A stretch of 13,292 bases of DNA from a virus. The translations under genes and the position numbers were made by a program. Below, piece by piece: positions 2,705 to 10,008 of the stretch. The notes below the pieces were generated by a model. The model was not told where the DNA came from, made no database searches, and was given only the letters and a program-made list of their open reading frames with translations. Numbering within the stretch: the first letter of the stretch is position 1; every line of letters begins with the position of its first letter. The stretch lies in the UHGV virus genome UHGV-0196552. The stretch is one strand, 5' to 3'.

Positions 2705-3433
2705 ATGAACAGAAAGCAATTCATCCAGTCACACGGAGCTACTTGCAGTAACTGGACGTGGAGTTGGTCATTTGTTAACCATGAAAAGAAGATGGTCATC
2801 TTTGGGTCATGGGATGTTGAGAGTGAACAAGAGCGGTCTGTAATACTCCGGGAGAAATGGGAATACAACTCAAACAACAAAAAACAACCGGGATACACCC
2901 AGGCACTGGAACACATCCGTTTAGCCCATGAAGGCTACGAACTTTACACCTTCAATATGGTTTTCGCAGAACACCCTGAGAATCCTGAAATTGCAGTAAT
3001 CAAGGATTTTGAGCGTAAATTAAACAAGCGATATCTTCGTAAAGAAGGTGTTGTTTGGTATGCAGACTTCTTACCTAATCCATTCCCTGATGAAATTCCT
3101 TCAGGAGAGAGTTTTGTTGAAGGTGCAAAGACTCAAGTAACAGTGAACTACTACGAACGCGATCCAAAGGCCAGACAAGCCTGCATCCAGCATCACGGTA
3201 CTGCCTGTAAATGCTGTGGCTTCGATTTTGAGAAGGTCTATGGTACACATGGCCGTGGGTTCATTCATGTACATCACATCAAGCCGCTTCATACGATTGG
3301 GGAAAACTATGTGGTCAATCCCGTAACAGATATGATCCCATTATGTCCAAACTGCCATGCAATGGTACATCACGGAAGCGAAGTACTTCCAATTGCAGAT
3401 TTGAAAAAGAAAATGACATTCTGGAGCGAGTAA
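2705..3433 (+). CDS. McrA-like HNH nuclease: about 170-aa N-terminal domain of unknown function plus C-terminal HNH (beta-beta-alpha-Me) motif
   Basis: Strong RBS AGGAG 5 nt before ATG 2705. C-terminus contains CKCCGF...GFIHVHHIKPL...LCPNCHAMVHH, the classic Cys-pair, HH, Cys-x2-Cys-His HNH signature as in McrA-type enzymes. N-terminal domain is Trp-rich (WTWSWSF, GSWD). Confidence 0.75.
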   Translation: MNRKQFIQSHGATCSNWTWSWSFVNHEKKMVIFGSWDVESEQERSVILREKWEYNSNNKKQPGYTQALEHIRLAHEGYELYTFNMVFAEHPENPEIAVIKDFERKLNKRYLRKEGVVWYADFLPNPFPDEIPSGESFVEGAKTQVTVNYYERDPKARQACIQHHGTACKCCGFDFEKVYGTHGRGFIHVHHIKPLHTIGENYVVNPVTDMIPLCPNCHAMVHHGSEVLPIADLKKKMTFWSE

Positions 3434-4225
3434 ATGGATTTATCACAATTGAGCAACGTCGAATTGATGCAACTGAATCAGTTGACGCTTGATGAGTTAG
3501 AACGACGAGAGGTTATCAGAACCAGAAACAATCCTATCAGTGAGTACACTGAATGGCTGGTTGCGGATAAGATGCAAATGGTACTGGCTGCACCTAGTAC
3601 TAAAGGGTATGACGCTACAACAACTGACGATCGAAAAATTCAGATTAAGTCTCGTAAGAATAATTTAAAAAACCAATCATTAATTCTTGGGATTATCAGA
3701 AATTATGATCTGAACCAATTCGATGAACTCATTGCCGTAATATATAACCATGATTTCTCAATTCGTTATGCCATATCCATACCACATGAATTAGTGAAGG
3801 AATATGGTTTTTATAATGAGCATCAAAATGGTTACACTTTAAGAATAAGCAATTTATTACTTAACGATCCACGTGTAACAGATATCATTGAATTTATTGA
3901 CCCAGACACTGAACGTTCAAAGGAAGAGATCACGGTGAAGCCAGATTCAAACACTATCCGGGATGTACAGACAATAGGAATGCAGACATTTGTTGAGTAC
4001 TATCAGTATGTTGAAAGTGGTATGAACACAACTGATCTTGTTGAAAAGATGGTAACTGACCATCCAGAATGGAAGGAAAGTACTGCAAGAACTAAGGCAT
4101 CTTCAATGCGAAGAGTATTCAAGAATGGCGACAACATTGAAGTACTAAAAATCATCTATAAGTCGAATCACCCAGCAATAACGCATGAGATTAAGAGTAA
4201 ACTGATGACGCGTTGGGATAAATGA
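3434..4225 (+). CDS. hypothetical protein translationally coupled to the HNH nuclease; N-terminal region has a possible Mrr-like PD-(D/E)xK signature
   Basis: ATG 3434 directly follows the TAA of the upstream gene (3431-3433), with GGAG 8 nt upstream. SEYTEW...KGYD...DDRKIQIKS fits E...D...(Q/E)xK spacing of restriction-endonuclease-fold proteins such as Mrr. This is a weak, motif-only assignment. Confidence 0.5.
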   Translation: MDLSQLSNVELMQLNQLTLDELERREVIRTRNNPISEYTEWLVADKMQMVLAAPSTKGYDATTTDDRKIQIKSRKNNLKNQSLILGIIRNYDLNQFDELIAVIYNHDFSIRYAISIPHELVKEYGFYNEHQNGYTLRISNLLLNDPRVTDIIEFIDPDTERSKEEITVKPDSNTIRDVQTIGMQTFVEYYQYVESGMNTTDLVEKMVTDHPEWKESTARTKASSMRRVFKNGDNIEVLKIIYKSNHPAITHEIKSKLMTRWDK

Positions 4226-4325: not shown

Positions 4326-4637
4326 TCAAAACGGTAATTCTCCCTGCTCATAGAACCATCCATCTTCATCATGCTGCTTATAGACGGCATTCTCAGTACT
4401 CAGATATTGCAAACCTTCCAGTACTGAACTTAGCGGCGTTTCCAGTATGAACACGAAGCAATCACGCTCAATCGTGCCTAACCAGTATGTACCTTGCTGG
4501 TTCTGGAAGAAAACGCGATCCCCATATGAAAACTCATCAAGACTGTATCCCCAATAGCAGACCTTAGCCCATTGGCCTAAATGCTCAAACTGCTGCACCC
4601 CGCGTTTGATTGCCAGATCAAAACCGTTCTTGCCCAT
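4326..4637 (-). CDS. hypothetical small protein (103 aa), Trp/Tyr-rich
   Basis: ATG start with GAGG-type RBS about 9 nt upstream on the minus strand. GC higher than neighbouring AT-rich genes. No family recognised. Confidence 0.5.
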   Translation of the reverse strand: MGKNGFDLAIKRGVQQFEHLGQWAKVCYWGYSLDEFSYGDRVFFQNQQGTYWLGTIERDCFVFILETPLSSVLEGLQYLSTENAVYKQHDEDGWFYEQGELPF

Positions 4638-4743
4638 ACTATGCCTCTACATTAATACTGGTTATCCATACAGTATTGCATCACATTTCGCACAGATCCA
4701 GCCATCAAAATACTTACCACTAAAAACGGTAGAAATGTAATTA

Positions 4744-4813
4744 TCGATCATTTTAATTTGATCAATGGTTAAAAATGATCAATTATCAATCAGTTATGAC
4801 AACTGAGAGATCA
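4744..4813. promoter_or_regulatory. divergent promoter region with clustered GATC sites and TTGATCAA-type palindromes; operator-like
   Basis: Four GATC within about 70 bp (about 4745, 4760, 4777, 4809). Palindrome TTGATCAA at 4758-4765 and related ATGATCAAT at 4775-4783, spaced about 17 bp centre to centre. A DnaA-box-like TTATCCATA lies at 4662-4670. Confidence 0.3.
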
Positions 4814-4815
4814 AC

Positions 4816-5325
4816 ATGAAACTCGAACATTGGGCAATTCCGATCACTTCATTGGACGGTATGTTACTCGGCGTAGAGCTGGAAACCCGTGTACTGATAA
4901 ACGGTTGCCAGGTACTGATGGGGGCAGGAAAAGAAAGTGAATATATCCGTCACGTGGTCTATCAGAACCAGTTAAGAATGATTCAGGGTAAAGCCGCATG
5001 GTTCAAAGAAAAGGGGCTGTTGTGCGTGCTCAGTACTGGCACAGGTACACGCTATGAAGATCTACCATTCATACGGTACATGGCTGCTGAACCACTGCTA
5101 ACGGACGGTTACGACTTAGTTCGACTAAATAGACGGTTCACTGAAGAACACATAGAGCGGCTGATCTTCCCGGTACTCATCAATAACATCATGCAGTACT
5201 GCGACAAGGTGATCGTACAAGTCAGCAGCAATCGAAATCACAGGATTTTACGAGAGTCGGGGGTATGGGCAGTACAGGGAGAGTACAGGCCAATCCGCTT
5301 TGAACAATGCGAACAACTTCTATAG
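4816..5325 (+). CDS. compact, degenerate EAL-like domain protein (probably catalytically inactive c-di-GMP phosphodiesterase homologue)
   Basis: Four EAL-like motifs in the right order: PITSLDGMLLGVELETR (compare YQPIVDL.TG.IVGAEALLRW), LSTGTGTRY (compare DDFGTGYSS, with DD lost), DLVRLNRRF (compare LKIDRSF), VQVSSN...VQGEYRP (compare EGVE...QGY.FSRP, with EGVE lost). Only 169 aa, shorter than a canonical EAL domain. Confidence 0.45.
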   Translation: MKLEHWAIPITSLDGMLLGVELETRVLINGCQVLMGAGKESEYIRHVVYQNQLRMIQGKAAWFKEKGLLCVLSTGTGTRYEDLPFIRYMAAEPLLTDGYDLVRLNRRFTEEHIERLIFPVLINNIMQYCDKVIVQVSSNRNHRILRESGVWAVQGEYRPIRFEQCEQLL

Positions 5326-5335
5326 GGATATAACA

Positions 5336-5608
5336 ATGAAAATACTAATCGTCATGTTGGTAGTACTGCTCACAGGCTGCGGCAGCGTACATCACTCATT
5401 CATGGATAAAGCCTTTGTCGGCAACGTTGATAACAAGGCTACAATAGTACTGTTCGACGCTGGCACACGAAACGGGGTGAAGTACTACCGGCCTCAGTTC
5501 CAGAGTGATTGTGGCCGCACCTACAATCCGATTTACCAGGTGGACAATGGCAGTACTACATGCCATATACGAGAGGAAAGAATTAAAAAAATGCATCAAT
5601 ATAGATAA
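5336..5608 (+). CDS. small lipoprotein (signal peptide with lipobox LTGC); candidate moron or superinfection-exclusion lipoprotein
   Basis: The track ORF 5300-5608 begins with a TTG shown as M. The internal ATG at 5336 has an AGGGA RBS about 7 nt upstream and begins MKILIVMLVVLLTGC, a textbook lipoprotein signal. Mature part has several Cys. Confidence 0.6.
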   Translation: MKILIVMLVVLLTGCGSVHHSFMDKAFVGNVDNKATIVLFDAGTRNGVKYYRPQFQSDCGRTYNPIYQVDNGSTTCHIREERIKKMHQYR

Positions 5609-7626: not shown

Positions 7627-7640
7627 AGTGATCTCAATAA

Positions 7641-10008
<2,368 letters not shown>

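Follow-up and report, generated by a model that had tools for sequence, protein, structure and literature searches.

A conserved pair of GATC sites around the predicted -35 hexamer of a prophage STM1697/YdiV-like gene

Does a cluster of GATC sites in front of a phage gene mark a switch, and which of its sites matter? The question is raised by a 13,292-nucleotide stretch of DNA from the UHGV virus genome UHGV-0196552, the whole of which we call the window. A sequence-only reading had noted four GATC sites within about 70 bp, in a divergent promoter region immediately upstream of an EAL-like gene, and took them for the pattern expected of a methylation-sensitive or repressor-controlled switch. 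The count and the place both hold. The sites start at 4746, 4760, 4777 and 4809, within 67 bp; the rightward 169-aa open reading frame (ORF) has its ATG at 4816 and a 103-aa ORF occupies 4326-4637 on the minus strand, which leaves a 178-bp divergent intergenic region between them. Comparison with relatives indicates that the conserved unit is a GATC pair, the first and third sites, which brackets the -35 hexamer, and not the four-site cluster. We tentatively read the cluster, with slightly less than even confidence, as a composite core promoter/operator of a prophage STM1697/YdiV-like gene that would be gated by a host factor and would contain two functional GATC boxes.

The four sites are numbered here from the left: site 1 (4746-4749), site 2 (4760-4763), site 3 (4777-4780) and site 4 (4809-4812), with more GATCs at 4695 and 4842. 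Four sites in 67 bp is the densest GATC cluster of the window. It was equalled or exceeded in 69 of 2000 dinucleotide-preserving shuffles, and has a probability of 0.086 if the 53 sites of the window are placed uniformly; five GATCs per 100 bp was equalled in 15 and six per 151 bp in 13 of the 2000 shuffles. The window as a whole is not enriched (53 GATCs seen, 44.7 expected), and the intergenic region holds five against 0.49 expected from its local composition of 32% G+C (Poisson P = 1.5e-4). The E. coli genome has 19,120 GATCs per 4.64 Mb, and on that basis a chance model gives about 46 clusters equally tight per E. coli-sized genome. Set against background density, a comparison that the sequence-only reading had proposed, the cluster thus stands out within the window and above local composition, and fails to stand out at genome scale. 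Density by itself is therefore weak evidence, and the comparative data bear the argument.

Upstream regions of the EAL-like gene were taken from about 25 loci (handles such as L034 denote single loci) gathered by protein homology and by DNA pattern, with encoded proteins 25-99% identical. IMG/VR, metagenomes and Scandinavium supplied the close relatives; those with 39-50% identical proteins are from Lelliottia, Pseudescherichia, Enterobacter, Klebsiella, Cedecea, E. coli and metagenomes; two further relatives encode full-length EAL proteins, 25-27% identical. Promoter elements were counted in 23 tabulated upstream regions, and a separate set of 14 representative lineages was also used. Pattern-scan hits in Roseivirga, Tannerellaceae, Emticicia and Chloroflexota contigs were taken as chance from their taxonomy and were not inspected.

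Intergenic DNA is unalignable among these relatives except for one short block. Two GATC boxes recur at fixed places. Box A (ATCGATCATT, 4743-4752) contains site 1 and lies at about -46 from the predicted transcription start; box C (ATGATCAAT, 4775-4783) contains site 3, at -16 to -13, immediately next to the -10 hexamer. In 21 of the 23 upstream regions the -10 directly follows the GATC of box C, which is preceded by T, C or A; in 19 the box A GATC lies 30-33 bp 5' of box C. Box A is kept in 11 of the 14 representative lineages, and L005 keeps it too, though there it is tabulated as 'other'. The immediate flanks of its GATC vary (C, T or G before, A or G after), giving the forms ATCGATCATT, ACCGATCGAT, ATTGATCAAT, AAGGATCGTT and AACGATCAAT. 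Counted from the ATG, sites 1 and 3 stand at about -70 and -39, and they are retained in lineages whose proteins are 39-50% identical. Half of the representative lineages (L034, L031, L041, L037, L042, L038 and L040) have exactly these two GATCs in the 130 bp upstream. The 14 lineages hold 12 other GATCs where composition predicts 4.9; since several are inherited from a common ancestor and one is the L005 box A, about 6-7 independent events remain, which is about chance.

The pair also outlasts replacement of the DNA around it. In L004 and L030 a promoter patch of about 45 bp (L004 about 4918-4962, aligned to window 4733-4778) has been replaced, at about 50% identity, within otherwise near-identical DNA; both GATCs are kept, together with a consensus-like -35, TTGACT. 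The copy in E. coli AREA_C483 is probably of the same mosaic type (83.9% identity over the gap). Chromosomal, non-prophage copies (L037 and L042, from Cedecea and another genome) keep the same architecture, and the GATC-box motif was not found to recur elsewhere in the sampled prophage DNA. Because chromosomal copies keep the module and the motif is not repeated in prophage DNA, a factor recognizing it must be a host protein that Enterobacteriaceae have conserved; the candidates include Dam, SeqA, IHF, H-NS and sigmaS. A phage-wide repressor operator was rejected as a candidate: TGATCAAT (at most one mismatch), ATYGATCRAT and TYGATCRA are absent from the other intergenic regions of the window and of related prophage loci. 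The alignments indicate strong purifying selection on part of the cluster, sites 1 and 3, such as a protein-binding or methylation target would show, and on this evidence boxes A and C are likely to be functional.

One distant homolog offers a side observation. In L039 (Citrobacter) a perfect 11-bp inverted repeat with two GATCs, TATCGATCAAT-N8-ATTGATCGATA (about 2411-2440), lies upstream of a 229-aa true EAL/STM1697-like gene, and its right arm overlaps a promoter TTGATC-16-TATAAT. By its sequence this is a differently arranged GATC-bearing operator in the promoter of that homolog.

The conserved boxes lie on a predicted promoter. The predicted -35, TTGATC (4758-4763, plus strand), contains site 2, and the predicted -10, AATTAT (4781-4786, plus strand), would place the transcription start near 4792-4794. 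In 20 of the 23 upstream regions a TTGnnn hexamer precedes the -10 by a spacer of exactly 17 bp. The -10 takes the forms AATTAT, AATATT, AATCAT and AATATC, its AAT being invariant in close and mid-distance relatives. With -35 and -10 hexamers at 17-bp spacing kept at orthologous positions, TTGATC-17-AATTAT is very likely a rightward sigma-70-type promoter, possibly leaning towards sigmaS.

This arrangement also sorts the two remaining GATCs. The sequence-only reading had pointed to two near-identical palindromic sites, TTGATCAAT (4758-4766) and ATGATCAAT. Both are present, and they are not equivalent. The only perfect 8-bp palindrome is TTGATCAA (4758-4765), of which the -35 is a part, and the second site is palindromic over TGATCA alone; in most lineages the GATC of the first is replaced. 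The -35 contains GATC solely in the window group and L010, and elsewhere reads TTGACT, TTAACT, TTGATA, TTGATG, TTGCGA, TTGCCA, TTGAGT, TTGATT or TTGAAT, so that site 2 appears to be present because the -35 of the window lineage happens to read TTGATC. Site 4 falls between the ribosome-binding site GAGAG (4805-4809) and the ATG. It occurs only in the subgroup of the window, L003, L004 and L030, reads GAGC or GAAC in L005, L028, L029 and L020, and is missing from every distant lineage, a distribution that marks it as a neutral passenger.

Other elements proposed for the same DNA were set aside. A promoter-like TTGTCA-16-GATCAT on the minus strand (4802-4775) was discarded, as its -35 is not kept in L010, L014 and other lineages, and a sigma-28 promoter drawn from CGATAA strings was rejected by eye for unfit spacing and -35. 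For a structured RNA or 5' untranslated element the sole Rfam match is a plant microRNA family at 14.7 bits, against a gathering threshold of 160, and a UCAGUU/AACUGA hairpin does not outscore shuffled sequences (z = 0.06).

Next to box C lies a predicted IHF site (4771-4796, plus strand), made of an A-tract (4771-4775), 8 nt, and a core TATCAATCAGTTA (4784-4796). An A-tract 8 nt 5' of the core is the arrangement of the lambda H' site. The core fits exactly, at 9 of 9 specified positions, the consensus WATCARNNNNTTR as quoted in PMC8407004, and it overlaps the -10 and the predicted start. It is perfect at the same offset in 18 of 23 relatives with at least six different N4 strings; the N4 positions vary (TCAG, TAAG, TAGG, TGAC, TCAC, TGGG) while WATCAR and TTA are constant, as a genuine IHF site would be expected to do. 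Perfect cores just after the -10 are found also in L033 and in the 25%-identical L043, which has no GATC. On this pattern we lean slightly towards a true site for IHF. IHF so placed would lie over both the -10 and the start, with repression as the natural consequence.

Among known Dam-controlled promoters the closest precedent is the IHF-Dam switch of Salmonella intA, the one family of those compared that fits at sequence level. At intA IHF represses from a motif that partly overlaps the -10 and also blocks Dam, and renewed IHF binding is reported to be hindered by methylation (Yang et al. 2025, PMC12455584). The likeness consists in a mobile-element gene in a Dam-positive enterobacterium, an IHF motif overlapping the -10, and a GATC just upstream of or within IHF-covered DNA. 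In the window the IHF consensus lies on both the -10 and the start, and site 3 is 4 bp upstream of the core, between A-tract and core, within or beside the DNA that IHF is predicted to cover. There are differences: the single critical GATC of intA lies about 20 bp upstream of its IHF motif, whereas the window has a conserved pair around the -35; the sequences are unrelated; and the intA GATC is conserved mainly within Salmonella, the pair across several genera.

A looser likeness joins the window to promoters in which methylation acts on the core hexamers themselves. IS10, IS50, dnaA P2 and P1 cre have Dam-sensitive -10/-35 promoters, with expression tied to replication or DNA entry. The sci1 type VI secretion promoter of enteroaggregative E. 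coli is under Fur/Dam control (PMC3145626). All share with the window a GATC in or abutting the core hexamers. In them methylation or hemimethylation directly alters polymerase or repressor binding, and methylation at -15/-14 may do so here; unlike them, the window gene has no Fur box (best match 12/19) and no transposase or replication function.

Under the composite promoter/operator that we prefer, rightward transcription would run from the -35 TTGATC, a 17-bp A-tract spacer and the -10 AATTAT, and IHF would be the gating factor: sitting over the -10 and the start, it should keep RNA polymerase off. The two YGATCRAT boxes (4743-4752 and 4775-4783), which flank the -35 at a spacing of about 31 bp, would be real recognition elements. 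Their methylation state (full, hemimethylated after replication, or none on freshly replicated or injected phage DNA) would tune the binding of factor and polymerase. The methylation effect would be graded, as at intA, rather than classical phase variation, and the leftward 103-aa gene would be controlled separately by LexA. To our knowledge all the hosts are Dam-positive; boxes A and C would then normally be methylated, which makes some methylation dependence plausible, and the free variation of the bases beside an invariant GATC points the same way. A measurable Dam dependence of the promoter is accordingly worth entertaining, though we would not count on it. A stronger claim, that YGATCRAT - (-35) - YGATCAAT - (-10) - IHF is a previously undescribed, widely conserved Dam/IHF-type epigenetic module that would gate expression of STM1697-like anti-FlhD4C2 proteins, encoded on prophages as well as chromosomes throughout Enterobacteriaceae, by methylation or replication state, we think unlikely.

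Several observations weigh against the composite promoter/operator. Alleles with an intact gene have lost the GATC of box C (L005 and L028, reading GATT and AATT) or of box A (L015, reading GTTC); L036, L012 and L033 lack box A, L043 lacks any GATC and L039 has its GATCs arranged differently. The variable A-to-C spacing of 30-33 bp argues against a rigid cooperative complex. A lone IHF consensus match is not significant (two found in the window, 1.6 expected), and a stricter single-sequence scan misses the promoter (8/12 matches, below threshold). Conservation at box C continues past the GATC to GATCAAT and into the -10, as expected of an ordinary protein or polymerase contact. This last point and the GATC losses lend weight to an ordinary regulated promoter to which methylation is irrelevant, a possibility we take seriously: box C would consist of polymerase contacts, G(-16), T(-14) and C(-13) with the AAT (a sigmaS-type extended -10), and box A would be a UP-like, H-NS or other site containing GATC by chance. 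The T(-14) and C(-13) of box C could form such a -10 extension; C(-13), T(-14) and TG-N0-2-C are reportedly sigmaS determinants, and many genes related to cyclic di-GMP are sigmaS-dependent. Strings resembling TCGATAAT are frequent in box A variants and score 8/10 against the H-NS nucleation motif TCGATAAATT, and no partner motif of a Dam switch is present. An ordinary promoter fits poorly, however, with a tetranucleotide that is fixed while adjacent bases vary freely, with a G and an A in box C that have no assigned polymerase contact, and with a box A GATC that survives both the changes of its flanks and the patch replacement in L004 and L030. The H-NS-like match is at chance (28 window positions equal it) and is absent from L014 and L031.

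A heritable Dam-dependent ON/OFF phase-variation switch of the pap, agn43, gtr, opvAB or std type, in which a regulator blocks methylation at alternative GATC sites, strikes us as quite improbable. It would suit a conserved GATC pair flanking the -35 and an inverted repeat (4740-4754 and 4772-4786, 13 of 15 positions matching) centred near the -35. It would also suit the AT-rich flanks, AAAATGATC on one strand in both boxes, which resemble those of poorly methylated switch sites. GATCs at switch sites reportedly have poorly methylated flanks. Such flanks are mentioned also in PMC2909390, where a phage precedent is found as well: the promoter region of gtr, an accessory gene of phage P22, contains four GATCs, with OxyR half-sites of 9-10/10 and GATC pairs 13 bp apart (-110/-97 and -46/-33). 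Motifs for the partners OxyR, Lrp, Fur, CRP, ArcA, FNR, DnaA and H-NS and for the pap GATC box were scored on 4638-4815, along with LexA and IHF, and only the last two rose above chance. The Dam/OxyR switches (agn43, P22 and Salmonella gtr, opvAB) share with the window several GATCs within about 100 bp of the promoter, one of them overlapping the core; they need GATC-containing OxyR half-sites of 9-10/10 and two alternative occupancy states, whereas the best half-site here scores 7/10 against ATAGnTnnnAnCTAT, a score equalled at 164 window positions, the best full site scores 13/20 and the geometry is other than that of gtr. Lrp reaches 11/15 at best, with 235 window positions as good, and Fur 12/19. 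The likeness to pap is a GATC with a T/A-tract flank, CGATCATTT here against the pap box CGATCTTTT, a single 8/9 match (4745) that 10 window positions equal; pap has two GATC boxes 102 bp apart within six Lrp sites, with PapI, and the conserved spacing here is 31 bp. The three GATCs of std, in 25 bp at about -230, are far upstream and HdfR-bound, again a different geometry. No two alternative, mutually exclusive sets of sites are seen, and natural losses of GATC are tolerated. The switch pattern of the sequence-only reading therefore survives in part: the region is regulatory, probably repressor- or IHF-controlled, and sites 1 and 3 are conserved, while the four-site unit falls away and OxyR, Lrp and Fur stay at chance. 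That the cluster is a mere accident of AT-rich intergenic DNA, with no GATC functional, is very improbable. The genome-scale expectation and a window-level P of 0.035-0.086 speak for an accident, as do sites 2 and 4, which behave as neutral or incidental; at least 11 lineages whose proteins are 39-50% identical keep sites 1 and 3 in fixed positions amid unalignable intergenic DNA, which speaks against it. Least probable of all is a site of DNA transactions and not a promoter, be it a replication origin with SeqA sequestration or a cos/terminase-binding region with an IHF bend. A GATC cluster beside an IHF consensus at 27-32% G+C would suit such a site, as would weak DnaA-box-like strings (7/8) and a small-terminase gene, terS, at 7665 with only a 38-bp upstream spacer where cos is not obviously present. 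Against it, the elements keep a fixed distance to the EAL-like ATG (35 bp from the -10 in nearly all lineages) and the architecture is found in the chromosomal copies L037 and L042 without nearby phage genes; only two GATCs are conserved, the DnaA-like matches are at chance (20 window positions), and there are no iterons and no 13-mer array.

The gene behind the promoter (4816-5325, plus strand) was rightly called EAL-like. Its 169-aa product is a degenerate EAL-like protein of the STM1697/YdiV family, assigned by profile, model and alignment: the family profile matches STM1697 (5hxg) at E = 1.8e-29, and an AlphaFold model with a predicted local distance difference test (pLDDT) score of 80.8 has as its best Foldseek PDB matches STM1697-FlhD (5hxg_A, E = 2.4e-10) and YdiV. 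There is a weak NCBIfam hit to the C-terminus of PdeH and no Pfam EAL hit at E ≤ 0.01. STM1697 and YdiV/RflP share the family by profile and fold; the protein here has 169 aa and lacks a WLDDLG segment of about 20 aa present in all the 39-50% identical relatives, which may make it a further-degenerated or altered-function variant. Members of the family are inhibitors of the flagellar regulator FlhD4C2. By profile and model the product is a degenerate EAL protein of this anti-FlhD4C2 kind. Both prophages and chromosomal sites carry members of the family; in Cedecea, for instance, one lies between rimO-like and bssR-like genes. The E. coli K-12 rflP/ydiV gene was considered as a comparable locus and set aside, its upstream region having no similar GATC/IHF module.

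Upstream of box A by about 25 bp lies an imperfect palindrome, ACCACTAAAAACGGTAG (4716-4732), of the form ACCA-N7/8-TGGT and conserved in the alignments. It is perfect in L038 (Klebsiella, about 2410-2425; CTACCAAAAATGGTAG) and in L023 (CCACTAAAAGTGG), and is a possible further factor site, a candidate only by its sequence, upstream of the rightward promoter.

The left arm of the region serves the 103-aa gene (4326-4637, minus strand), the divergent partner of the EAL-like gene, identified as an ORF with a hit to phrog_2100, a family of unassigned function. Homologs are 46-92% identical, synteny is kept in L010, L014 and L041, and a fold search of the PDB returned nothing below E = 0.6. A LexA (SOS) box, TACTGGTTATCCATACAGTA (4656-4675), lies ahead of its start by about 20 bp; it is an exact TACTG-N10-CAGTA that is unique in the window (0.015 exact matches expected by composition) and agrees with the E. 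coli consensus at 16 of 20 positions. CTG-N10-CAG is conserved in every lineage that has the leftward gene (L002-L005, L010, L014, L031, L034-36, L038, L040 and L041). The leftward promoter is predicted from this to be repressed by LexA. The conserved box marks the region as a truly divergent control region with an SOS-controlled left arm, and the 103-aa protein could be an antirepressor or other induction-linked factor.

The window is a piece of an enterobacterial prophage, with an HNH endonuclease, DUF6998 and DUF3800 proteins, Nu1-like and gpA-like terminase subunits and a portal. In E. coli AREA_C483 a 94.7%-identical copy is found between yeaG and mipA, beside a large serine recombinase, and the locus was found in this one genome only among 5,426 complete E. 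coli genomes. No match to the window DNA was found among 50,697 phage records. Homology of the locus DNA to known phages or E. coli promoters was rejected on these two counts. The AREA_C483 prophage (L009, NZ_CP123310 2,151,860-2,176,662) begins with the 644-aa serine recombinase and is strongly decayed, with copies of IS3, IS5 and ISSen4, a group II intron and a split terminase gene. A phage-encoded Dam was rejected as a candidate: the window encodes none, and the 236-aa protein labelled 'methyltransferase' close to the right end of the AREA_C483 prophage matches no Pfam family. The HNH endonuclease gene (2705-3433) is followed directly by the DUF6998 gene (3434-4225), a pair kept in the AREA_C483 prophage that may be a defence or homing module.

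Downstream of the EAL-like gene is a gene for a small Cor-like lipoprotein (5336-5608, plus strand), annotated as a 273-bp coding sequence in E. coli AREA_C483. Its translation has a lipobox, LLTGC, and hits phrog_1754 and, weakly, phrog_1119 (Cor), a weak similarity to the Cor superinfection-exclusion proteins. It is probably co-transcribed with the EAL-like gene, and the two together look like a lysogenic-conversion cassette. Further on, the Nu1-like terS is separated by a 38-bp gap (7627-7664) from a leftward 187-aa gene; with so short a spacer a lambda-style cosB/cosN is not obviously upstream, and the cos of the phage should lie elsewhere.

Known Dam-controlled promoters are few (pap, agn43, gtr, opvAB, std, sci1 and intA) and nearly all were found singly. 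Two promoter GATCs fixed across several enterobacterial genera beside an IHF consensus make a candidate member of the IHF-Dam type, itself described only recently. If methylation is irrelevant, the promoter is an ordinary one, and still a clean case of a GATC 'cluster' that resolves into promoter hexamers and passengers. If the Dam link is true, DNA methylation state would be tied to prophage control of host motility, biofilm formation and flagellin exposure. Should the module prove epigenetic, a prophage could shut down the motility of its host heritably or in step with replication, for example in a subpopulation, or just after infection or induction.

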